Shown here piece after piece: positions 3,691 through 55,813 of a stretch of DNA of 64,000 nucleotides. The first letter of the stretch is position 1, and each line of letters begins with the position of its first letter. The stretch covers positions 6,279 to 70,278 of the forward strand of contig DAPV01000035.1 of NCBI GenBank assembly GCA_002502625.1, written 5' to 3'. The notes beneath the pieces were generated by a model, which saw only the letters and a program-made list of their open reading frames with translations, did not search any database and was not told where the DNA came from. The stretch is from Euryarchaeota archaeon UBA125 (GTDB lineage: Archaea; Thermoplasmatota; Poseidoniia; Poseidoniales; Thalassarchaeaceae). A program made the position numbers and the translations under genes.

Positions 3691-4842
3691 ATGCCCATGC
3701 CGTTGCGTCCTCCTCTCATTGATGATGCAAAAGTGCTAGCACGCTATCCGTTTTTACCACAATCCGCTGAAAATACTCGAACCATATTATCTGATAATGG
3801 AATTAGTATGGAAGATTTACTTTCAGCCGCATGGTTATCTGATATTCGTCGTAAAGGAGATATGAGGGTGAAAGAATCAGTCCTACATGATGATGGAATT
3901 GAACAAAGTTCTGGAGATCTGAGTACTGAACTTGGGAGAATGTCAGAAAGTCTCTCGTTTCTTTATGCAATGATGGTCGCTTGTGCCACATTTGACGAAA
4001 GGGTTACTGCAAGATGGGCAGAAGGAGAGTCTACTCGAGCAGATAAATTACTAGGAAGTGATATTCTAATTTTTGAAAAAATCGCTACTACTTATTTATC
4101 TAATATTCAGAGCGAAATTAAAAATGGGGAGACCATCTATTCAATCCCTTTAACCGATTTTATTGAACTTAGTCCTAGAATTAGTGGAGACTATTGGAGG
4201 CTCCCAAACAGGGCTATGAAGGATGGATGGGTAGAAATGGGGCCTTCAACTAGTGAAAATAGTCAACAAAGATTAGCTAGACTAATCAAAGAAAGGATTC
4301 GTGAAGACTTGAGAAAACGTTGCGATGACAGGATGGAAAAAATAGATGAAGAGTTTGCTGAAAGATTGAGCGAACCTGTTGGGGCTGTATTGACTATTCT
4401 ACAATCAAGATCTACTCTAAATTTTGAAGCAGGAGAAGCAACTAGATCAGATTGGCCACCATGTATGGAGATTGCAATTAAAGAATTGTCAATGGGAGAA
4501 AATGTAAACCATTCTGGTCGTCTTTTCCTCGCTGCGATTAGTGCTGCACTTGGCATCGAGCAAGAGCAGTGTGCTTCATTCTTTCAAGGTGCACCTGACT
4601 ATAATCCTGAAACTACTAGCTATCAGATTGGTCATGTGTATGACAGAGAATATACCCCAGCTGGTTGTAGCCGATTAAAGATGGATGGAAGATGTCCTGT
4701 TTCACCTGGAGATGATCCCATTTGTGATAAGCCGAAAATGAAGCATCCATTGTCGTATGTTTGGTGGAAACAAAGAGATCGGTCTCAGGCAGAAGAACCA
4801 AGAGAATCAAACGAAGAATCTGCGGAGTCGGCCAACCCTTGA
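3691..4842 (+). CDS. priL: DNA primase large subunit PriL
   Basis: C-terminal 4Fe-4S domain with ...DWPPCMEIAIKEL... and three further Cys (QCASFF, AGCSRLK, GRCPVSPGDDPIC). The ORF-track start at 3592 overlaps the divergent gene, so a downstream ATG (3691) was chosen. Confidence 0.7.
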   Translation: MPMPLRPPLIDDAKVLARYPFLPQSAENTRTILSDNGISMEDLLSAAWLSDIRRKGDMRVKESVLHDDGIEQSSGDLSTELGRMSESLSFLYAMMVACATFDERVTARWAEGESTRADKLLGSDILIFEKIATTYLSNIQSEIKNGETIYSIPLTDFIELSPRISGDYWRLPNRAMKDGWVEMGPSTSENSQQRLARLIKERIREDLRKRCDDRMEKIDEEFAERLSEPVGAVLTILQSRSTLNFEAGEATRSDWPPCMEIAIKELSMGENVNHSGRLFLAAISAALGIEQEQCASFFQGAPDYNPETTSYQIGHVYDREYTPAGCSRLKMDGRCPVSPGDDPICDKPKMKHPLSYVWWKQRDRSQAEEPRESNEESAESANP

Positions 4843-4875
4843 TAGGGATGTACTTTTTATCTCCACCCGAAGAAG

Positions 4876-5988
4876 ATGACCCGGACCCTTGTGCTGACTA
4901 TTGATCGAGACAATGATCTCGGAATTAAAGCAGGACTCAGAGGGCCAGTAATTGGAAGGAAATCTACTCTCAGTGCAGCATTAAGACTTGGACTTGCAGA
5001 TCCAGAAGAGAGTGATACAAATGCAATTCTCGGAGCACTTCACCACCATGACAGAATTTTAGATTCTGGTGAGCCGAATGATGCTGTTGAAGTTGCAATA
5101 CTTACAGGGGATGAAAGAGTAGGGGCTCGTTCAGATCGGGCAATTGCAAAACAGCTTGAAGAAGTAATTTCTGAATTTCAACCAGATTGCGCTATCTTAG
5201 TTACAGACGGAGCAGAAGATGAGGCTGTAATGCCAATCATTCAAAGTAGAGTTCGAATTGATTATGTTGAGAAAATTATTGTAAGACAAAGTAAGGGTAT
5301 TGAAGGTACATTTTACTATATCATGAAAGCAATCGAGGATCCTAAATGGAGAGCACGGCTTCTTGTTCCATTATCTGTGTTCATGATGATAATTGGTTTA
5401 GGAATGATCTTGCCAGGTGGAGGAGTTCTAATTGGTGCAATGCCCCTTATTGTCGGAATTTGGTTACTAGCAAAAGGACTTGGGGCTGAAAATCAATTTG
5501 AACGTTTGATGCTTGACATGAGAGATAGTGCAATGGGTGGGATCATTTCATCGCTTCTATGGGCATTTGCATCATTCTCAAGTTTACTAGCAATTTTGGA
5601 ATCCTATCGTACAATAGTGCAAGCAGATTCTGATTTATCTACCGTTCAAATAGCAATTGAAGCAATGGATAGTGGATTACAATGGATTGTTCTCGCCTCT
5701 CTTGCTGTAGCAATGTCAATGGTAGTTTTGAGATGGAGAAGAGGTACGCTAACAGGACGTGTTTTCCAAATTATGGCTGGAGGAGTAGTCATTTACGCAT
5801 TTGCTGAGGCAGGACTTGATGTCGCTAGACAAATTACAGGCGGAGTAACATATGAATTAGATCCGGGAGTTATCTACAACGATTGGGGATTGGCCGTAGT
5901 TGCAATAGTTGTTTATTGGATGGTAAGAACCGGTGTGAAATCTTGGTCAACCAGACAAGAAACGCAAGGACGATTTTGGGGAGTTTAA
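4876..5988 (+). CDS. DUF373-family archaeal membrane protein
   Basis: N-terminus LVLTIDRDNDLGIKAGLRGPVIGR...LADPEESDTNAILGA followed by several TM helices. This matches what I recall of DUF373. Confidence 0.45.
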   Translation: MTRTLVLTIDRDNDLGIKAGLRGPVIGRKSTLSAALRLGLADPEESDTNAILGALHHHDRILDSGEPNDAVEVAILTGDERVGARSDRAIAKQLEEVISEFQPDCAILVTDGAEDEAVMPIIQSRVRIDYVEKIIVRQSKGIEGTFYYIMKAIEDPKWRARLLVPLSVFMMIIGLGMILPGGGVLIGAMPLIVGIWLLAKGLGAENQFERLMLDMRDSAMGGIISSLLWAFASFSSLLAILESYRTIVQADSDLSTVQIAIEAMDSGLQWIVLASLAVAMSMVVLRWRRGTLTGRVFQIMAGGVVIYAFAEAGLDVARQITGGVTYELDPGVIYNDWGLAVVAIVVYWMVRTGVKSWSTRQETQGRFWGV

Positions 5989-5991
5989 TTA

Positions 5992-6423
5992 CTACTCAAA
6001 AAATAATTCATACATACAATGAGGACAAGTAACTCGAATTGGGCGTATTGAAGGTATTCCAAGTGGAGACCTGCACTCCGTACAAACAATTGCTTGATCT
6101 ACTTGTGATTGACGTGCTCGTCCTGACTCACTAGGATCGTATTCCATACGAAAACGATGGGCATTTTGCAATGCTTCGGGTTTATCTGTCGAATTTTGAG
6201 TAGGTTCCAAATCATAATCTACAGATTTACTTCGTGCAAAAGATGGATCTAGAATTGGATCTAGTTTAGGTTCTGGAGATTCTCCTTTGGCACTAGCCAT
6301 TAATTGCAAGAGTTCTTCTTCGGATACACTATACTCAACTGTAATTCGATCTATTTCTAACATTTGTTCGTATCCGTCCATTGAAATTAGGCTAGAAATG
6401 ACTGAGGCTGGAACGTCTGCCAT
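5992..6423 (-). CDS. Hypothetical protein with C-terminal zinc ribbon
   Basis: CTEC...CPHC pairs at the C-terminus. No other recognisable domain. Confidence 0.4.
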   Translation of the reverse strand: MADVPASVISSLISMDGYEQMLEIDRITVEYSVSEEELLQLMASAKGESPEPKLDPILDPSFARSKSVDYDLEPTQNSTDKPEALQNAHRFRMEYDPSESGRARQSQVDQAIVCTECRSPLGIPSIRPIRVTCPHCMYELFFE

Positions 6424-6507
6424 AAAAACGGAGTAGATAACTATCTCTTGACATTTGAGTATGGTCGTTTACTAATATTCACAAAGGAGAATGTTTTCAA
6501 ATGTTTC

Positions 6508-7212
6508 ATGAGCGACGGTGTTGGTTCACTTTACATGTTAAACACATGTCCATTTACATGGAAGGTTAGAGCGCTTCTTGATCATCTAGATCTTCCTCAT
6601 GAAAGAGTAAAAATCAATCCACTAAAAATCAAAAAAAGTGTTTCATTTGCAGGAGATTGGGGAAAAACACCAGTATGGAAAATGTCTGATGGAGAAGTTG
6701 TTGTTGATTCTACTCCGATTATGAAAAGAATCGATGAAGTCTACAACAATGGAAATCTATGGAAAATGGACGATCAAGTTCGTAGAGATAAATGGATGGA
6801 ATGGGCAGATACTAAAATGAAAGATGCAACTATTCCAATCCTCTATGGATCAATTGGTTCTGCATTATCTACAACTAGATCTGTAGCAAAACACGAACGA
6901 TTTGGTTTCTTTACAGGACGAATCTATGCTTGGCTAGGTTTTCCCATAATGTGGGGGATTATTGCTAAAAAAAGAACCAAGAAAACTGGAATGGAACCTG
7001 GTGAACTATGGCATCATTTACTCAATGAATGGACTGAAGAGATTGGAGAAAAGTCGTTTTTTGGAGGTAACACCCCCCATATTGTTGATCTTGCAGTTTT
7101 CGGATATATGCAATCCATTGAGATGCATTCCAAAGCATTTCGTTTGATTGAAAATCACTCTAAAGGTATGCTATGGTTTAACCGAATGAGAAATTCTACA
7201 GTTGCTCAATAA
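6508..7212 (+). CDS. Glutaredoxin-2/GST-N-like thioredoxin-fold protein with C-terminal hydrophobic segment
   Basis: SLYMLNTCPFTWKVRALLD... (CPF(T/Y) motif after a beta-strand), later ...VVVDSTPIMKRIDEVY. Start chosen at an internal ATG; the ORF-track start is 6448. Confidence 0.45.
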   Translation: MSDGVGSLYMLNTCPFTWKVRALLDHLDLPHERVKINPLKIKKSVSFAGDWGKTPVWKMSDGEVVVDSTPIMKRIDEVYNNGNLWKMDDQVRRDKWMEWADTKMKDATIPILYGSIGSALSTTRSVAKHERFGFFTGRIYAWLGFPIMWGIIAKKRTKKTGMEPGELWHHLLNEWTEEIGEKSFFGGNTPHIVDLAVFGYMQSIEMHSKAFRLIENHSKGMLWFNRMRNSTVAQ

Positions 7213-24575: not shown

Positions 24576-25007
24576 TCATTCTTCCTCATCCGATAGTCCA
24601 CTAACAAAAACTAGTCTAGCATATATCGCCATCAACATCATCAACATTCCAGATACAGTCAATATCAAGGATGTTGGCTCTGCAAATAATGATTGAAGCA
24701 TTGAGTTCCCAATTAACCAAGATAACATTAATGTCGCAATACTAGCAAGTAATATTCTAGAGATTGATCGGTGCGGTTTGGACCAGAGATGAAGAGCGGG
24801 AATTAATCCGTGGAAGCCGAAAGTTCTAGCATACCATGCTCGATAAAGTAGTGTAAGGCCAATTAGCCCTAAAACACCCCTAGTGAAATCTACATCACCC
24901 CATGGGCCTGCGAATCCAACACCAAAAGAAAGTGTATTTAGAACCAAAATCAAGCCAATTAGAACTTCAAAACGGATATCAATCGGTTCAAATGGATGTT
25001 GGCCCAT
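24576..25007 (-). CDS. Hypothetical 4-TM membrane protein
   Basis: Hydrophobic helices throughout. Abuts the rnhA stop. Confidence 0.4.
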   Translation of the reverse strand: MGQHPFEPIDIRFEVLIGLILVLNTLSFGVGFAGPWGDVDFTRGVLGLIGLTLLYRAWYARTFGFHGLIPALHLWSKPHRSISRILLASIATLMLSWLIGNSMLQSLFAEPTSLILTVSGMLMMLMAIYARLVFVSGLSDEEE

Positions 25008-25088
25008 ATATGCTGGATACCAACTAGATTCATGATTTCATCGATTGATTTTGTCGGATTTATATCCCCTGCGTATATTCTAGTAGTT

Positions 25089-25958
25089 ATGGACGAAGGT
25101 GGTTTGCAAATACATATTGTTGGAGCGGGTGGAATCGGATCAAATTTAATTGCATTATTACTGCCCTCATTAAGAAACGGAATTATTGCTAATCAATTGG
25201 GTGGAATCTCTTTCCATCTACATGATGCAGATATGGTAGAAGAAAAAAATTTGGTGCACCAACGTTTTACAGAGTCGCATATTAACATGCCTAAAGTCGA
25301 TGCTTTGGCTATGGAATTTAATTTAATTCATCCAAATGTACGTGTTATAGGACATTCAACCAATCTTAGATCTTCTGAGCCTCTTAGAAATGCAAATATC
25401 ATAATAGTAGCTGTGGATAGACCCGAGCCACGCAGAATTGTACATTCTCTAAGAAATGTAGAATGGTATGATTTGAGATGTGGACTTGATTCATGTCTCG
25501 TACTCACTCATGAAACTCATCTTGATGATATAGAAAGATTGACTCCTGAACACAAACCAGCTAGCTGTCAACCAGATGGTGCTATTGAAAGTGGTAATAT
25601 TCAATTTGGTTCTGCTTTAGCAGGAACATTTGGTGCCAATATCATTCTGAGGTCACTCATGAATAGAATAGGTAACAAAACGAATATCCCTGGTCCCGTT
25701 TGTTTTTCGATGGACATGGGAATGATACCTGTTTTCATACAAACAAAAAATACAGTTCCATTTAGTCAACAGCCACCAAAACGTCCTACTCATCTATGGT
25801 CAGAAAAAGAAGATGTGCAATTGCTTGAACAAGCAAAAAGGGGGTTAACTCTGGAAAGAGTTGCGAGTCATCATCAAAGATCTCCTGGGGCAATTTGGCA
25901 TAGACTTCTAAAAATTACAGGAATAAGAAAAGCATTAGATTCTGAGGCAGGTGAGTAA
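25089..25958 (+). CDS. Minimal E1-like (ThiF/MoeB-fold) adenylyltransferase with C-terminal Myb/SANT-like motif
   Basis: IHIVGAGGIGSN (nucleotide loop), ..LHDADMVEEKNLVHQRF.. (E1 Asp/Arg motif). No CxxC zinc pairs. C-terminal WSEKEDVQLLEQAKRGLTLERVASHHQRSPGAIWHRL. Confidence 0.65.
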   Translation: MDEGGLQIHIVGAGGIGSNLIALLLPSLRNGIIANQLGGISFHLHDADMVEEKNLVHQRFTESHINMPKVDALAMEFNLIHPNVRVIGHSTNLRSSEPLRNANIIIVAVDRPEPRRIVHSLRNVEWYDLRCGLDSCLVLTHETHLDDIERLTPEHKPASCQPDGAIESGNIQFGSALAGTFGANIILRSLMNRIGNKTNIPGPVCFSMDMGMIPVFIQTKNTVPFSQQPPKRPTHLWSEKEDVQLLEQAKRGLTLERVASHHQRSPGAIWHRLLKITGIRKALDSEAGE

Positions 25959-26435
25959 ATGGAACTTTCTTCAAATTCAGTACTAAAAATGTGTGAGAAA
26001 ATTCAAAGTGGGAAAGCTAAGGATGTCGAAATAAAGCAAATTCTAGTTGAACTTGGAAATCAAAAAAGATGGGCAGAAATGTGGGGTATTAGTCATGCCC
26101 TTAGAGTAGAAATAAGTTGGATTAAAGATGCTAAAAATGATGTTTGGGTAGATATTGGAACTGCTGGTGAGGTCACGTTAAATCCGCCAATCGGTGCTCA
26201 ACTACCGTTTCAATTATGGATTCATACTCATCCATGGAATGCATATTGGAGTATTACCGACCTTCGAACATTAGCAAAGTTTTGTGGTCTGATTCAAGAA
26301 GCATTGGTTTTAGGGCATGATCATAGTAAGCATACAGTATGTAAGTTACCATTTGGTCATTCATTAGAAGAGGGTGTAGAACCCCTATCAACTTGGACCG
26401 ACGAACCATGTATTCCCTATGAGGTATCAAAATGA
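25959..26435 (+). CDS. JAB/JAMM-family metalloprotease (deubiquitinase-like)
   Basis: JAMM motif WIHTHPWNAYWSITD (H-x-H-x7-S-x2-D) with upstream Glu. ATG immediately follows the E1 stop. Confidence 0.7.
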   Translation: MELSSNSVLKMCEKIQSGKAKDVEIKQILVELGNQKRWAEMWGISHALRVEISWIKDAKNDVWVDIGTAGEVTLNPPIGAQLPFQLWIHTHPWNAYWSITDLRTLAKFCGLIQEALVLGHDHSKHTVCKLPFGHSLEEGVEPLSTWTDEPCIPYEVSK

Positions 26436-26671
26436 AAATTCGAATTCCTGATGATGATGAAGGTAAAGACATTCGTAACATAATTGTGGGAAACGATATT
26501 GGAATTGGTTTGAAGAAGTGGCTAAAAATGCAGATGGATATTGAAGCGGATGATGCATTAATAGATGCATTGATCATGTATTTCGAAGCATGTAAACTAG
26601 CTGGACTAGAATTTGTAGATATTGAAGAGGCCATCATATCACATAATAAATGGCAAAATGATTCTATGTAG
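26432..26671 (+). CDS. Small acidic hypothetical protein translationally coupled to the JAB gene
   Basis: ATGA overlap with the JAB stop. 79 aa, no GG terminus. Confidence 0.35.
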   Translation: MKIRIPDDDEGKDIRNIIVGNDIGIGLKKWLKMQMDIEADDALIDALIMYFEACKLAGLEFVDIEEAIISHNKWQNDSM

Positions 26672-26736: not shown

Positions 26737-27345
26737 GTGTCAAACAAGTATCCAGTTGAAATCGAACGGAAATTTTTGGTTCATTGTATTCCAATAAACC
26801 TTCAAAATAGTACTCATCTGAGACAATGGTACATTCCTTCATCGTTGATTGAATATAAAAATAAAATTACCCTAAATGAATTAGAATTAGTTTCAGAAGT
26901 AAAAAATGAATGGCAAAGTAAGGTTCGTGAATTAATCAACCTTGAAAATACTACAATTCGGATACGAATAGATAACAAGTCTGCAATTCTATGTATCAAA
27001 GGAAAAACAAAAGGAATTTCTAGAATGGAATTTGAATGGGAATTGCAAAATTATTCAGTTATAGAAGAATTACTTGTAGAATCAAATTGGCCCATGGTGG
27101 AAAAACAGCGATGGGAGATAATAGCAGAAGATGGGCATTTGTGGGAATTAGATCAGTTTCTAGGATTGAATGAGGGGTTATGGCTCACTGAAATTGAGCT
27201 TGCTAATGAAAATGATGATTTCGTATGTCCTAATTGGGTTGGTTCAGATGTTTCTCAAGATCGAAGGTTTTCATCAAAACAGTTGGCTAAAAATCCGTAT
27301 GTTGAATTCAAAGAAGATCAATTAAGACCACTGAGAAAATGTTAA
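26737..27345 (+). CDS. CYTH-domain triphosphate-tunnel metalloenzyme (CyaB/ThTPase-like)
   Basis: N-terminal VEIERKFLV (ExExK motif) and size about 200 aa with alternating charged beta-strands. Confidence 0.55.
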   Translation: MSNKYPVEIERKFLVHCIPINLQNSTHLRQWYIPSSLIEYKNKITLNELELVSEVKNEWQSKVRELINLENTTIRIRIDNKSAILCIKGKTKGISRMEFEWELQNYSVIEELLVESNWPMVEKQRWEIIAEDGHLWELDQFLGLNEGLWLTEIELANENDDFVCPNWVGSDVSQDRRFSSKQLAKNPYVEFKEDQLRPLRKC

Positions 27346-27512: not shown

Positions 27513-28646
27513 ATGGAGATAAAAGAGAATTGTATAGAATGTGGTAGCGATAAATTTGAACATGATGATGTAAGAGCTGAATATCATTGCACTATTTGTG
27601 GATGTATTGTTGAAGACCAATTAGATGATAATGTGACCCAATTCATGAATAGTGAAGGTCAGATAGAGAGAGAGATGAATTCTAACAGACTCGGAGGTGA
27701 TGAAACTAAAACATGGGCTTCCACAAGAGATGCTGCGGGCAGACCTGTTGTATACAATAGACAAAAGAGGTTGAGAAATAGTAGATTTGACAGAAATTCG
27801 AGGGCTGAAAGAACTTGGTTGAAAACTGATGTTGAGCGTTTTATCGATTCACCTAATATGCCAGGCTCTAGAACAATGAAGACTCTTGCAAAGAAGATTC
27901 TTGCCCAAACCCACTCTGTAGAGGAACACGAGAAAAGAAGAGGTAATTCTGTGATGTGGGAGGCAATGAAAAATGTGAATAATGGAGAAGATGTTCCTCT
28001 ACCACTCAATCAAACAAGACATGCTCAGAAAACTGGGAACGACGATACTAGAAATGGGAATTATTCAACAAGAATGGTAGCAATAGCTGTCATGAATATA
28101 GCCGCTAGAATTATGGGAATTGCTCTACCAACAAAGCAATTGTCGACTGCATTCGATGTTCGTCATGATCATTTGACTAGAGAGTCAATGAATATCACGA
28201 AATATCTTACAATTATTTGGAAAGCCGACAATTTGATTGTTGAACAAGGAAACCAGAGTCAGTCTCTACCTAGAATAGGAATTTCACCAGGAATGCTTAG
28301 CGAAGGAAGAACGTGGAGTGAAGAAGACATTCGTGCTGCTATTGATGAATTAAGACCTTCATTGGAAGAAAGATTTGGAACAATGACTGCCAGATTAATG
28401 ATTACAGAGATTTGGGCAATGCTAGAAGAAGCGAAAAGTCATGCTTATCTCTCAGGACAGAATATCAGATTAGTTACTGCAGGCCTAACTGTGCGTTCAA
28501 CAAAAGCAAGAGGACAATCAAGACTTAAGCAAAGAATTGCGGAATTGTTAGGAATTACCACAAATAGACTGAAAAGACTTGAGAAAGATTACAGTTTAGT
28601 CATTGATGGAATTTTCAATAATCATCATGTACCAACTGATGCATAA
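27513..28646 (+). CDS. Divergent TFIIB/TFB-family paralogue
   Basis: N-terminal TFIIB-type Zn ribbon NCIECGSDKFEHDDVRAEYHCTICGCIVEDQ (cf. canonical [12 protein letters not shown]...[10 protein letters not shown] at 54749-55675). C-terminal HTH ..QRIAELLGITTNRLKRLEK. The middle part is highly diverged. Confidence 0.55.
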   Translation: MEIKENCIECGSDKFEHDDVRAEYHCTICGCIVEDQLDDNVTQFMNSEGQIEREMNSNRLGGDETKTWASTRDAAGRPVVYNRQKRLRNSRFDRNSRAERTWLKTDVERFIDSPNMPGSRTMKTLAKKILAQTHSVEEHEKRRGNSVMWEAMKNVNNGEDVPLPLNQTRHAQKTGNDDTRNGNYSTRMVAIAVMNIAARIMGIALPTKQLSTAFDVRHDHLTRESMNITKYLTIIWKADNLIVEQGNQSQSLPRIGISPGMLSEGRTWSEEDIRAAIDELRPSLEERFGTMTARLMITEIWAMLEEAKSHAYLSGQNIRLVTAGLTVRSTKARGQSRLKQRIAELLGITTNRLKRLEKDYSLVIDGIFNNHHVPTDA

Positions 28647-28735
28647 TATCTTGATTGATATACTCTGGAGATACTATACAGATGTCTTAGGACGTAAAAC
28701 GAATGATTTCGAACGCTAACAAGGAGGAAGAATAC

Positions 28736-28954
28736 ATGAGTAATATTACATTGCGCATCGTTAACGAATCTGGTGATACAATAATGAATTCTCTAAGTGA
28801 AGCCCAGCTTCGCCAAGAGATTTCTACACTCGACAATGAAAAGTGGATTTTTGTGGATGGTCGCATGGTCAACCGCAGTGAATTGGCTAATGTCGAGGTA
28901 GCAGACAATGCTACAGTAATCGTAACGCCAAAGATTGTTGCCGGGCGCGTCTGA
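28736..28954 (+). CDS. ThiS/MoaD-like beta-grasp (ubiquitin-like) protein with non-GG C-terminus
   Basis: MSNITLRIVNESGDTI...WIFVDGRMVNRSELANVEVADNATVIVTPKIVAGRV aligns in my reading to ThiS (..VQDGDQILLFQVIAGG). AGGAGG 8 nt upstream of the ATG. Confidence 0.45.
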   Translation: MSNITLRIVNESGDTIMNSLSEAQLRQEISTLDNEKWIFVDGRMVNRSELANVEVADNATVIVTPKIVAGRV

Positions 28955-32918: not shown

Positions 32919-35297
32919 GTGACTGACTGGGCGGGATATCTACAACACTTCACAGAAGAAGGGTTTAGTGAAGAGGGAATTAGAATCTTGTTGGGAGAAA
33001 ATCCAGATAGTGATTCAGTATTATTCGTTCAAGAAACGCTAGAAGATGCAAAAAAATTGATCATGATGTTAGATAGCGTTCCTAAATCACTAACCGAATC
33101 AGCAAATGGTATGAAAAGACGATTATTACAACATCCTTCTGAATTAGAAGATATTCGAGCTAGATACAATGTAATGGTTGTAGCAACAACCCCTTGGGTT
33201 GCATCGGCTGAAAAAATGAGAGAGCAGTGGTCAATGGAAGGTAGGTCAATTGAATTAGCTGCATGGCTTAGACGATTGGGGTCTATTGATCATAATCCTC
33301 CTAAAGAAACAAGAGAAGTGATCCAAGTAATCGAAAATATTGCACCTAGAGATGAAGTAAGAAGAGCAATTGAAAATTTAGAAGGTAAACAGAGAGAAAG
33401 ACGTGTAATCCTTCAAGACATGATGAATATTCTAGAACGAAAGGGGTGGAACTTAGAATTCTCTGAACATGCAAATCTTTCACAAAAGTTTGAAGAAGTT
33501 TCTGAATGGTTAGAATTGGAAGATCGAATTGAAGCATTAGAAAGAAAGATTTTCCAATTTGAGGAAAGAAGGCCAAATGAAGCTAACATGGGTTTGAAAA
33601 TTATTGAAAAAGCAAGACTCAATGGCGATAGAAATGCAATAAAACAATTAGAATTAGATGTTAATGATGAGATTCAAGATATTCTAGAAAGTGATGAAGA
33701 AATCAAAACTCGATTGAATTATTGGTCTCAAAATGGACTGATTATTACTGATTCGGAAATTCTAACAAACAATCAATTATGGAAATTCGAAGAAAACTTA
33801 GATGAATTAGAAAAACATTGGAATTTAGTTTATGAAAAATGTATTATTTTACGTAATCTTCTTGATAAATCAGGACAGAAATATCCAGATTGGATTGGAC
33901 ATGTTGATTCATATGAAAAAATTCTAACTACAATTGATGAATTAACAGATCAACAAAAACAACTGAATGATAATTTACAACTAGAAATTGAAACATGGAG
34001 AAATTACGGACTAAATTTAGAATTAATTGGTAAAATATTTGAAGGAAATAATGTATGGGAATTAGATGAACAGATTAACGGGTTACGATCATTGGCTGAA
34101 ATAGCAATTTCGATTCTCAATTCTATTGATTATTTAGATCAATCAATAGACAGCGAAAGAATCGGTGAAATTCGCGAAAGTGTAATTCGAGACTGGAATC
34201 TACATAGTACACTTCAATTTGAAATGGAAGAAATTGACAAGATTTCGCGAAGACAAGAACATCATTTAGTAATGCTATACGAACGTGCAGAAGAACTTTC
34301 TATGGACGTCACAGAATCGAATGATTGGACAATTGAAGAATTTGAAAATAGAATATTTGATGCTGAATTAATAAGAAATCGTGATGTAGAAAAAAGGGCT
34401 AAGAAGAATGAGGAATTGAATAAAAATATAGTAGAGTTGTCAAAAATTCCTACCCCTAAAGAAAAAATTGAAAATTCGTCTGACAATAAGAAAAATGATC
34501 TAAATAATTGGATCGAGAAGAAAGCGGCTGATGGGAAATTATTCTACTATAATCAAGAAACTAAACAGTCAACTTGGTCAAAACCTGATGGAATAATTCT
34601 ATCAACAAACGAACCAGTAAAAACTCCCATCAAAGAAGAGATTGAGTTAATCATTTCAGATATCAAAAATATTAGTGAAGAAAATGATGGAGAAATTATT
34701 GAAGGTGGGATTCCCAAAATTCCGGAGATAGAAACTGTTGTTCAGGAAAAAGAACCTATTCGGTTCAGACGATTGGGTGTAAATGGAATCAAGATGCCGG
34801 TTCTAGTTGAAGATGAAACCAAGATGAAAAACGATACAGAATCAGTCTCAGAGACTAATCAAAAAAAGAATCTTAATCATATTCTAAGAGAAAAATTGGG
34901 AATTAATAATGAGAATCCATTGATTGTAGAATCTTCACGAAACAGGGATCTAAGAATTCAACGTATTCTAAGACTAATTCCATTAATTGAATCAAAGTTC
35001 GATTCAGGTGATCAGCAAAAAATAGTTGATGACTTACTGCCCGTCCTTGAGAATATTGAACAATGGATTCGTGTAAGAAGTGAGCATCGACGATGTTGGA
35101 ATGACAATGGAGGAATTGTCCAAAAAATCGATCGCTTACAAGATGTGTTAGATGAAGTCCCTGGACCAGGAATTCAATTGCCAATTGGGTTCGATAAGAT
35201 ACCTTTGCCATCTAAAACAGAAGATCTGATTGAAGAAATTAAGGATTTTTCGATTAATGCTCTAGTCTCCACTTCTGGTGGAATTATCGCATTATAA
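32919..35297 (+). CDS. Large acidic coiled-coil protein containing a canonical WW domain
   Basis: ..LNNWIEKKAADGKLFYYNQETKQSTWSKPDG.. has the two Trp 22 residues apart, the central GK-FYYN-T and a trailing KP. The rest is E/K-rich coiled coil. GTG start with AGGTGGA upstream. Confidence 0.6.
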   Translation: MTDWAGYLQHFTEEGFSEEGIRILLGENPDSDSVLFVQETLEDAKKLIMMLDSVPKSLTESANGMKRRLLQHPSELEDIRARYNVMVVATTPWVASAEKMREQWSMEGRSIELAAWLRRLGSIDHNPPKETREVIQVIENIAPRDEVRRAIENLEGKQRERRVILQDMMNILERKGWNLEFSEHANLSQKFEEVSEWLELEDRIEALERKIFQFEERRPNEANMGLKIIEKARLNGDRNAIKQLELDVNDEIQDILESDEEIKTRLNYWSQNGLIITDSEILTNNQLWKFEENLDELEKHWNLVYEKCIILRNLLDKSGQKYPDWIGHVDSYEKILTTIDELTDQQKQLNDNLQLEIETWRNYGLNLELIGKIFEGNNVWELDEQINGLRSLAEIAISILNSIDYLDQSIDSERIGEIRESVIRDWNLHSTLQFEMEEIDKISRRQEHHLVMLYERAEELSMDVTESNDWTIEEFENRIFDAELIRNRDVEKRAKKNEELNKNIVELSKIPTPKEKIENSSDNKKNDLNNWIEKKAADGKLFYYNQETKQSTWSKPDGIILSTNEPVKTPIKEEIELIISDIKNISEENDGEIIEGGIPKIPEIETVVQEKEPIRFRRLGVNGIKMPVLVEDETKMKNDTESVSETNQKKNLNHILREKLGINNENPLIVESSRNRDLRIQRILRLIPLIESKFDSGDQQKIVDDLLPVLENIEQWIRVRSEHRRCWNDNGGIVQKIDRLQDVLDEVPGPGIQLPIGFDKIPLPSKTEDLIEEIKDFSINALVSTSGGIIAL

Positions 35298-54748: not shown

Positions 54749-55675
54749 TCAAATTTCAAGTTCGATATTTAGATTCTGAATTAATTCCTTGTATCTATTT
54801 CGAATTGTGACTTCAGTAACTCCTGCAACCTCTGCAACCTCACGTTGCGTACGTCGTTTACCACACAGGACTGAAGCAATATAGATAATCGATGCTGCAA
54901 TACCAGTTGGACCTCTTCCTGATGTCAATTCTTTCTCTTGTGCTCTTTGAATCAACTCATATGCCTTTGATTGGACTTCTGCATCTAGATCTAAACCACT
55001 ACAGAAACGAGGGATGTACATCTCTGGTGTAGTTGGTGGTATTTTCATCTTCAATTCTCGGACCATGAATCGATATGTGCGTCCGATTTCTTTTCTACCA
55101 GTTCTACTAGCTGTACTAATTTCATCTAATGTTCTAGGATTTCCACACTGCCTACAAGCAGCATACAAACTGGCTGCTGCTACACCTTCAATGGATCTGC
55201 CACGAATTAATCGGGCCTCTACTGCACGTTTGTAATTAACAGCAGCAGCTTCGCGAATTGACTTTGGAAGATTCAATCGGCTAGCCATTCTATCTAATTC
55301 AGCTAACGCCATAGCTAGGTTTCGCTCAGTTGCATTACTAACTCTACTTCTCTTTTGCCACTTTCTCATTCTGTAAAATTGGCTACGATAACGACTGCTG
55401 ATTGTTTTTCCAGAATAATCTTTGTTTTGCCAATCAATATCGGTGGAAAGTCCCTTATCGTGAAGCATAACTGTCATTGGTGCACCGGTTCTAGCCCTTT
55501 GATCTCCTTGTTCTGGACTAAAAACACGCCATTCTGCACCTTGATCGATTACGTTATCTTCCACAACTAGACCACAAACAGCACAGACAATTTCACCCCT
55601 TGTCTCGTCACGATCTAGGTCGCGGCTTCCACATTCTGGGCATTTTACGATGTCTTCTACTTGAGGGTCTGACAT
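54749..55675 (-). CDS. tfb: Transcription initiation factor TFB
   Basis: Zn ribbon [10 protein letters not shown]...[10 protein letters not shown], two cyclin repeats, C-terminal HTH ..[19 protein letters not shown]... Start set at MSDPQV (the ORF track extends to 55735). Confidence 0.9.
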
Positions 55676-55689
55676 ATTGATTATCTCCA

Positions 55690-55730
55690 AAGATATTATA
55701 CACTCGAATAATTCTCTCTTATAAATCTTT
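55690..55730 (-). promoter_or_regulatory. Putative TATA/BRE region for tfb
   Basis: Minus strand ..AAAGATTTATAAGAGAGAATTATTCGAGTGTATAATATCTTTGGAGATAATCAATATG. Two TATA-like elements 20-45 nt upstream of the ATG. Confidence 0.3.
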
Positions 55731-55813
55731 TTCAAAATAATGACCGATTTTTAAGCAACAGATTATTCATTTCTTTGAATTGAATCACGGCCAAGGTCAA
55801 ATAGAGTCAGTCC

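Follow-up and report, generated by a model that had tools for sequence, protein, structure and literature searches.

An unannotated ubiquitin-like protein family of the Poseidoniales with a clade-specific Ala-Gly end and a probable JAMM-dependent maturation

Introduction

How a small ubiquitin-like protein (Ubl) that ends in Ala-Gly-Arg-Val rather than in Gly-Gly could function is the question raised by an open reading frame (ORF) in a 64,000-nucleotide stretch of DNA (the window) from Euryarchaeota archaeon UBA125, a member of the Poseidoniales family Thalassarchaeaceae (GenBank assembly GCA_002502625.1, contig DAPV01000035.1, positions 6,279 to 70,278 of the forward strand). An earlier note on this DNA had described the product as a ThiS/MoaD-like beta-grasp protein, had held that such proteins require a terminal Gly-Gly, and had offered two alternatives: a JAB protease encoded upstream removes a C-terminal extension, as in systems of the QbsE/CysO type, or the protein is not conjugated at all. 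The comparative analysis presented here suggests that the ORF probably encodes the precursor of a Ubl specific to the Poseidoniales, which would be trimmed by a JAMM protease after Gly70, activated by an E1 enzyme and transferred to proteins without a recognizable E2. A search of the literature returned no description of this Ubl family or of any Ubl system in the Marine Group II archaea (MGII), for which a survey mentions only a UCH/RING match in a single-cell genome (PMC4327156).

Results

The Ubl gene, its family and its fold

The gene and its C-terminal codons are located as follows:

28736..28954, + strand: pro-Ubl gene, 72 codons plus stop; the predicted mature part comprises residues 1-70 and ends at Gly70
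28940-28951, + strand: C-terminal codons GCC GGG CGC GTC, with Ala69 at 28940-28942 and Gly70 (GGG) at 28943-28945
28946-28951, + strand: Arg71-Val72, the predicted propeptide, followed by the TGA stop at 28952-28954

The protein terminates in K-I-V-A69-G70-R71-V72, and both the ORF and its last codons reproduce the IVAGRV end given in the earlier note; AAGGAGG is present at 28721-28727, 8 nt ahead of the ATG. Because 48 close homologue clusters (E-values of 1e-21 to 1e-37, named Thalassarchaeaceae or Poseidoniales) and 24 remote relatives (profile search of 1.8e9 representatives) were recovered, the ORF is, judged by sequence comparison, a real gene. The window Ubl has no Pfam, NCBIfam or PADLOC match at E<=1, and three of 29 relatives weakly match Pfam ThiS (best E 0.0029), with some relatives labeled 'ThiS' by JGI. 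The protein belongs to an unannotated Ubl family of the Poseidoniales and falls, at the level of sequence families, outside of ThiS/MoaD (Pfam PF02597 and relatives).

An AlphaFold2 (AF2) model based on an alignment of 54 sequences (predicted local distance difference test score, pLDDT, 80.8; predicted template modeling score, pTM, 0.65) has the topology b1-b2-a1-b3-b4-(short helix)-b5 and a tail, residues 66-72, of low confidence and without secondary structure. This model superseded a first one built from 14 close orthologues, which was poor (pLDDT 60) and whose fold matches were not relied on. Among the Foldseek matches listed from the PDB, nearly all are ubiquitin-fold proteins or Ubl domains (ubiquitin, SUMO, FAT10, TtuB, and ThiS), including TtuB (5gha_F; TM-scores 0.61/0.63, root-mean-square deviation 3.0), ThiS (1zud_2; 0.56/0.61), and ubiquitin (up to 0.56), with a modest best E-value of 6.6e-3. 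A search of the PDB with the family profile placed polyubiquitin chains at the top (E 1.4e-3 summed over tetra-ubiquitin, about 4 bits per domain), with the family segment '...WvFVdgq...rlmpglvGG' in register with '...LIFAGKQ...LVLRLRGG' of ubiquitin, and gave ThiS (1f0z) an E-value of 0.82. The sole phmmer match in the PDB, the S4 domain of ribosomal protein uS4 (E 1.1), was judged to be due to chance, given the predicted beta-grasp fold and the recovery of ubiquitin and ThiS when the family profile was used instead. A beta-grasp fold is well supported by the model and its structural matches, such that the earlier assignment to ThiS/MoaD-like beta-grasp proteins stands for the fold and not for the family.

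An Ala-Gly end as a clade-level variant

G13, W37, and G70 are the sole residues shared by all of 29 divergent Ubl domains, while position 69 is mostly Gly, with Ala in several domains and Tyr in one. In the family alignments, Ala69-Gly70 of the window Ubl falls in the column pair that is Gly-Gly in most relatives, which agrees with the position at which the earlier note had placed Ala-Gly followed by Arg-Val. The clade of the window Ubl comprises 43 distinct sequences, all exactly 72 residues in length, with Gly70 in 43 of 43 and Ala69 in 42 of 43; rather than ending in a canonical Gly-Gly, these 42 orthologues share the Ala-Gly end followed by two residues. As Ala69 is kept in nearly all same-clade sequences and tails are common family-wide, the Ala-Gly end is a fixed variant of the lineage and not an error. 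Ala69 represents a clade-specific form of a [G/A]-G end and no defect, and against the background of the whole family the AG-RV terminus is unremarkable for its clade. The need for Gly-Gly had been drawn too strictly, with only the last Gly invariant in the family, as is also the case in UFM1 (Val-Gly) and in the Ubls of the bacterial Bub system.

A short tail after the Gly likewise appears to be the family norm. Within the window clade the tail is always two residues, with R, L, S, H, or C at position 71 and A or V at position 72, and the entropies at these positions (1.09 and 0.91) exceed the protein mean (0.58; 43 same-clade sequences). Other clades end in PGLVGG followed by zero to four residues (among them L, I, E, Y, N, A, C, LG, RAC, HAC, LYC, NHC, and LAA). 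Sorted by the type of locus (see below), the Ubls of type A end in AG plus two residues and those of type B in GG plus zero to two residues.

Many of the GG-type tails from the MGIIa end in Cys (GG-RAC, -HAC, -LYC, -NHC, -HC, and -C; sequences P0112, P0115, P0128, P0130, P0135, P0145, P0165, and P0176 and loci L040 and L047), which could be a product of chance, a feature recognized by the protease, or a link to Cys/sulfur chemistry. Two remote members of the family, P0065 and P0066, end exactly in GG and AG, respectively, and derive from contigs whose shortness or unclear origin prevents interpretation.

Precursor architectures

The family includes proteins with multiple Ubl domains, both tri-Ubl (P0049, P0050, and P0051) and di-Ubl (P0054, P0059, P0061, and P0069), in which the repeats are arranged head-to-tail and each domain ends in GG or AG followed by a linker of two to eight residues. 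Additionally, two Ubl domains are fused to an E1 in P0063, where the E1 part is 40% identical to the E1 of the window (E 9e-41), and to a protein referred to here as protein X in P0056, where residues 151-466 are homologous to the protein X encoded in many of the clusters. Poly-Ubl and fusion precursors of this form are predicted to be inert as E1 substrates unless cut after the Gly, and the architectures therefore imply that endoproteolysis at this site would be needed to free the C-terminal Gly. One locus (L001) carries tandem Ubl paralogues, the first of which (284-547) ends in QAGG plus a Cys-rich tail of 16 residues, YDCPCGKGYGWHFNCD, and the second of which (628-846) has the ordinary IVAGRA form.

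The neighboring E1 and candidate JAMM protease

Two genes upstream of the Ubl gene encode candidate enzymes for its activation and processing:

24996..25958, + strand: ThiF-type E1 adenylating enzyme (Pfam ThiF) with a C-terminal Myb/SANT-like helix-turn-helix (HTH); Met32 at 25089 is the probable true start
25959..26435, + strand: candidate JAMM/MPN+ metalloprotease of 158 residues with the JAMM motif; its ATG comes right after the stop codon of the E1

The E1 matches Pfam ThiF (PF00899) at 4.8e-12 (46 bits against a cut-off of 28.1). Residues conserved in the E1 family consist of G43xGG46, D77, D79, N85, H88-Q89, K100, D141, R146, and Cys191 (in SCQ), of which the GxGG loop, D77/D79, K100, the Mg-binding D141, R146, and C191 are invariant in 38 of 38 sequences, with Cys191 located 50 residues past Asp141. 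Against the PDB, the E1 profile scores best with the adenylation domains of UBA6, UBA3, and Uba4 (about 5e-9), followed by Cap2 (2e-5), MoeB (1.4e-4), and ThiF (7e-3). The window E1 also matches the PADLOC Cap2 'E1-E2' models (best 3.8e-8), the NCBIfam 6A-MBL cap2_3 model, and the PRTRC ThiF model, and reaches 2e-4 and 20.8 bits with the NCBIfam UbaA model, which has a cut-off of 450. The C-terminal HTH (25797-25955) is annotated as PF00249 on the L007 orthologue (6138-7004), and the E1s of type B lack it.

The 158-residue protein carries the motif E51 ... H89-T-H91-x6-S98-x2-D101, which is invariant in 41 of 41 distinct sequences; no Pfam match was found for any of 30 members of this family. 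With the family profile, 15 of 18 PDB matches are JAMM deubiquitinases aligned on WIHTHP...S..D (E 0.07-1.9), including AMSH-LP, Sst2, STAMBP, and the Rpn11-like protein of Caldiarchaeum. The gene lies 2301 bp before the start codon of the Ubl, and is the JAB protease that the earlier note had located 2.3 kb upstream. Both window enzymes keep every catalytic residue of their families.

Predicted pathway

Maturation by the JAB protein, the first of the two alternatives in the earlier note, is supported because Gly70 is invariant and followed by a variable tail, precursor forms occur, and the Ubl, E1, and JAMM genes are linked and in part fused. The JAMM metalloprotease (25959-26435) would cut after Gly70 and remove the Arg-Val dipeptide, and in relatives the same cut would separate the repeats of poly-Ubl proteins or release a Ubl from the E1 or X domain to which it is fused. 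The ThiF-type E1 (24996-25958) would then adenylate Gly70 and probably take the Ubl onto Cys191, from where the activated Ubl could be passed to target proteins without a recognizable E2, as in archaeal SAMPylation. From comparison of sequences we infer the cleavage, the adenylation, the Cys191 thioester, and the conjugation.

Gene cluster and synteny

JAB patterns were run against one genome per GTDB species and the genes of the cluster were mapped with hidden Markov models, which yielded 40 loci, all on Poseidoniales-type contigs (three probably in mis-binned bacterial metagenome-assembled genomes). A Ubl gene lies within the flanks of 28 of the 40 loci; in most of the remaining loci the contig breaks off beside the JAB gene. 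Loci of type A (the window, L007/L008, and L012-L020) have the order E1 (with Myb), JAB, 79-residue protein, CYTH, TFB-like, and Ubl, and loci of type B have a single Ubl gene or a pair, in some cases protein X, then E1, JAB, and usually the 79-residue protein and the TFB-like gene. The E1 and the JAB form a single ORF in eight loci of type B, in the order E1-JAB, and contigs L050 and L051, which encode fusion proteins, carry the same cluster. The Ubl/E1/JAMM/79-residue/TFB cluster rearranges and is conserved in about 30 species-level genomes. Even where the JAB proteins are only about 40% identical, the chromosomal neighbors are the same, with enolase/aminotransferase genes on one side and methyltransferase/redoxin/TPR genes on the other. 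No JAB relative was found among the viral contigs of IMG/VR, and a mobile or viral origin was rejected on this result together with the conserved synteny.

In the window, three further members of the type A cluster lie between the JAB and Ubl genes:

26432..26671, + strand: conserved acidic protein of 79 residues; shares 4 nt with the end of the JAB gene and comes after JAB in most loci with downstream sequence
26737..27345, + strand: protein with a CYTH domain and its ExExK signature (VEIERKF); the Pfam CYTH match, at 1.1e-4, narrowly misses the cut-off
27513..28646, + strand: divergent TFB/TFIIB paralogue with an N-terminal Zn ribbon (Zn_Ribbon_TF 1.1e-4); a conserved member of the cluster

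The 79-residue protein has no conserved Cys or His, on which grounds it was rejected as a candidate E2. The CYTH gene is inserted in the type A arrangement only. The Zn ribbon of the TFB paralogue is 43% identical (E 2e-8) to that of the canonical TFB encoded at 54749-55735.

Immediately after the TFB paralogue, an alignment of upstream regions reveals conserved signals:

28653..28727, + strand: conserved region 5' of the Ubl gene, from the alignment of 14 upstream regions of type A loci
28653-28665, + strand: TATA-like element, GATTGATATACTC
28683-28705, + strand: leader motif, TGTCTTAGGACGTAAAACGAATG
28723-28727, + strand: GGAGG Shine-Dalgarno sequence

The type A genera share a TATA-like element, GATTGATATAC(T/C)C, a leader motif, TGTCTCAnGGACG(T/C)TAAACGAA(T/C)G, and GGAGG. 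This region could combine a promoter with a regulatory leader; Rfam contained no family matching it and gave no structured-RNA match of note in the region.

Protein X (230-400 residues), absent from the window, has its gene between those of the Ubl and the E1 in many of the type B clusters (L009 1840-3006, L021 8512-9291, L025, L026, L033, L040, L047, L048, L006, and L036). It has no Pfam match and contains the motif W-[ED]-x-[FILMA]-C-[IV], the Cys of which is invariant. The layout, including the fusion behind a di-Ubl noted above, recalls the Ubl-E2 fusion BubAB, and protein X is a candidate E2 analogue that may serve as a lead only.

Several features near these clusters were observed in addition. 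A protein of 792 residues downstream of the Ubl gene (32919-35297, + strand) has a WW domain at residues 530-556 (PF00397, E 3.9e-8, 33.6 bits against a curated cut-off of 26.9), and the same WW-domain protein occurs in L007 from 13218 onward. To our knowledge WW domains are essentially eukaryotic, and one in an archaeon beside a Ubl cluster is unusual. The L050 contig, which carries a di-Ubl-X/E1/JAB cluster, also contains fragments of a single-subunit phage-type RNA polymerase (4099-6006; PF00940) beside the ExoVII and Pus10 genes. Two contigs of 28-29% GC (L053, 3749-5075, and L054) encode a remote Ubl whose last two residues are GG and, behind it, short ORFs matching the E1 model (1e-18 and 1e-10), with tightly packed ORFs that are possibly viral or DPANN-like.

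Discussion

We consider it likely that the window encodes an E2-independent system in which a JAMM-trimmed Ubl is attached to proteins, and within it SAMP-like conjugation to proteins is the favored outcome. The E1 carries no rhodanese domain and is closer to the E1s of protein modifiers than to MoeB or ThiF, poly-Ubl genes are a typical trait of modifiers, and the conserved partners in the cluster are not sulfur-acceptor enzymes but a TFB paralogue, a Myb domain, and small proteins, all of which argue for conjugation.

Several observations weigh against this interpretation. The two-residue tail of the window clade is fixed in length and restricted in composition and is not a freely drifting propeptide. 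In the MGIIa the Ubl gene can stand alone, far from the E1 and JAB genes, and on at least one MGIIa contig a lone Ubl gene lies near rpoP and an RFC-like (AAA/clamp-loader) gene. The assignment of the JAB protein depends on its motif and on profile matches below significance (the E-values of 0.07-1.9 given above), and the spacer from the second His to the Ser of the motif is six instead of seven residues long; the JAMM protein of L050 has the x7 spacer. The E1 has His88 (38 of 38 sequences, followed by Gln in 37 of 38) where E1s usually carry the Arg of NLxRQ, and the UBA6 chain aligned at His88-Gln89 reads Arg-Gln. Scans with Pfam, PADLOC, and NCBIfam detected no E2/UBC-like or E3 match in the window cluster; Ubl systems that work without an E2 are known (SAMP and Urm1). 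Lastly, the evidence fits protein conjugation and thiocarboxylate chemistry alike.

In the most serious rival, the protein is a sulfur carrier of the QbsE/CysO/CxnE type: the JAB would trim the tail, the E1 would adenylate Gly70, and a thiocarboxylate formed there would donate sulfur to a metabolite or tRNA. The highest TM-scores belong to TtuB and ThiS, some relatives have the weak Pfam matches and JGI labels of ThiS, the E1 is small and of ThiF/MoeB size, and the many Cys-ending MGIIa tails are reminiscent of the CysO-Cys adduct. The removal of short tails by a JAB is also the logic reported for QbsE/QbsD and CxnE/CxnF (summarized in PMC5925218). However, a search confined to the conserved cluster genes of about 30 species found no MoaE, ThiG, CysM, TtuA/NcsA, rhodanese, or desulfurase, and the features that favor conjugation (an E1 without a rhodanese domain and with higher profile scores against modifier E1s, tandem poly-Ubl genes as a hallmark of modifiers, and conservation of the TFB paralogue, Myb domain, and 79-residue protein) are each at odds with a dedicated carrier. 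We regard this reading as unlikely, and it is only partly exclusive of conjugation by analogy with the dual functions of SAMP, Urm1, and TtuB. Of the QbsE/CysO comparison in the earlier note, the trimming of a tail by a JAB is retained, and a sulfur pathway is less likely given a conserved cluster devoid of sulfur-acceptor enzymes.

The same biochemistry could instead serve defense against viruses, with the Ubl tagging viral or host proteins during infection in the manner of the Bil, Bub, or CBASS-Cap2 modules. The matches of the E1 to the Cap2, cap2_3, and PRTRC ThiF models and the CYTH-domain protein in the cluster are compatible with this role, and a role in defense has been proposed for the polyUbl/JAB/E1 operons of bacteria (6e, since renamed Bub; bioRxiv 10.1101/2024.11.21.623953). 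The cluster, on the other hand, is present in 40 species representatives, occupies the same chromosomal neighborhood in lineages with strongly diverged JAB proteins, has no relative in the IMG/VR viral contigs, and contains no other PADLOC match. Its conserved position and wide presence therefore fit a vertically inherited core function and not a mobile island, and a defense module is improbable.

The second alternative of the earlier note, a non-conjugated beta-grasp adaptor that binds non-covalently and whose AG-RV end is never exposed, is slightly less probable again. The loss of the penultimate Gly, the constrained length and composition of the tail in the window clade, and the lack of a detected E2 in the window cluster speak for an adaptor. 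Against it stand the retention of Gly70 in all and of Ala69 in nearly all same-clade sequences, the predicted disorder of the C-terminal segment, which resembles a Ubl tail, and the function of single-Gly ends in UFM1 and the Bub Ubls. Moreover, the same clade keeps an E1 and a JAB in the cluster with all catalytic residues, and with Gly70 invariant the absence of conjugation is difficult to reconcile with such a pair. That the C-terminus is a sequencing or assembly artefact, or that the ORF is a pseudogene of a GG-ending gene, has nothing in its favor beyond the unusual end itself and is excluded by the recurrence of Ala-Gly plus two residues across the 43 distinct same-clade sequences, with the identical protein (P0005) present on 227 contigs from many independent assemblies.

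Returning to the reading of a JAMM-matured, conjugated Ubl, the presence of a TFB paralogue in the cluster and of a Myb domain on the E1 permits a guess that the system is linked to transcription. The full form of this idea, in which an E2-independent conjugation system with polyubiquitin-like genes belongs to the Poseidoniales core genome and is wired to the initiation of transcription via the TFB paralogue and the Myb-E1, is doubtful; if true, it would constitute an independent archaeal invention of Ubl control over the basal transcription machinery. The Poseidoniales are among the most abundant planktonic archaea, and the cluster is order-wide with a fixed chromosomal position. Further, the natural series of C-terminal variants (GG, AG, and YG, with differing tails) offers a handle on what an E1 and a JAMM protease need at the end of a Ubl.

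Comparison with known systems

The closest known system is that of the bacterial polyUbl/6e operons (Bub type I; PMC1779556, bioRxiv 10.1101/2024.11.21.623953), whose JAB makes its cut behind the one Gly that is conserved (bioRxiv 10.1101/2024.11.21.623953). Both have one to three tandem beta-grasp Ubl domains, a single conserved C-terminal Gly as the site of cleavage and activation (the predicted site in the Poseidoniales), a JAB fused or next to a small E1, a Ubl made as a fusion precursor, and a Zn-binding protein in the operon. The window cluster is not a member of this group, because its defining components were not found: scans of the cluster proteins with Pfam and PADLOC gave no match to an E2/RWD-like domain or to the DUF6527 (BubE) protease. 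The Poseidoniales cluster is, moreover, archaeal and part of the core genome, fuses E1-JAB where Bub fuses JAB-E1, keeps an invariant Cys in the E1 whereas BubCD is without the catalytic Cys, and has a TFB paralogue, 79-residue protein, Myb domain, and CYTH protein as partners; the window Ubl has no sequence-level match to the PADLOC or Pfam models of the Bub/6e Ubls.

The closest archaeal analogue in logic is the SAMP system of Haloferax. SAMPs are members of the ThiS/MoaD families with a free GG at the C-terminus, and the genes for SAMP, UbaA, and JAMM proteins are scattered rather than clustered; neither poly-SAMP genes nor fusions of a SAMP to an E1 are known to us. The two systems appear to differ in Ubl family, in clustering, and in the forms of the precursor, with the window Ubl matching no ThiS/MoaD model and the window E1 far below the UbaA cut-off. 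Haloferax SAMP1-3/UbaA/HvJAMM1 (PMC4443979, PMC4895103, PMC2948915) and the Poseidoniales system share an archaeal Ubl, a ThiF/MoeB-type E1, no E2 or E3, and a JAMM protease that acts, or in the Poseidoniales is predicted to act, on the C-terminal Gly, and the transcription factor TBP2 is a known target in Haloferax.

In the QbsE/QbsD, CxnE/CxnF, and CysO/Mec+ pairs, as summarized in PMC5925218, a clustered JAMM protease removes a short extension after the Gly before adenylation by the E1, as is predicted for the Poseidoniales Ubl; QbsD is proposed there to remove Cys-Phe from QbsE, which ends in GG followed by Cys-Phe. These clusters encode biosynthetic enzymes that accept sulfur, and the carriers are MoaD/ThiS proteins with GG-x ends, neither of which is seen in the Poseidoniales cluster. 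Eukaryotic UFM1 offers a parallel at the C-terminus, in that pro-UFM1 loses Ser-Cys to expose Val-Gly (PMC9638016), and the UFM1/UBA5/UFSP system shares with the one predicted here a two-residue propeptide, a mature end of hydrophobic residue plus Gly (Val-Gly and Ala-Gly, respectively), and a small non-canonical E1. It differs in being processed by a cysteine protease and in having a dedicated E2 and E3, and UFM1 has no sequence relationship to the window Ubl.

Eukaryotic polyubiquitin genes and the pro-ubiquitin-Rpn11 operon of Caldiarchaeum, in which Rpn11 processes pro-ubiquitin (PMC6043591), share with the Poseidoniales family head-to-tail repeats with a short cap after the last repeat and processing, here predicted, by a JAMM (Rpn11-like) protease, and the family profile is in register with the C-terminal half of ubiquitin. 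Similarity to ubiquitin is remote (about 4 bits per domain) and, unlike in ubiquitin systems, no E2 or RING E3 is present. Triads of Ubl, E1, and JAB are already known from Bub, Bil, and CBASS and from the SAMP and Caldiarchaeum systems; what is new is an unannotated, order-wide archaeal Ubl/E1/JAMM cluster, set apart by its polyubiquitin-like genes, by Ubl-E1 and E1-JAB fusions in archaea, and by its partners, the TFB paralogue, Myb-E1, CYTH protein, and 79-residue protein.

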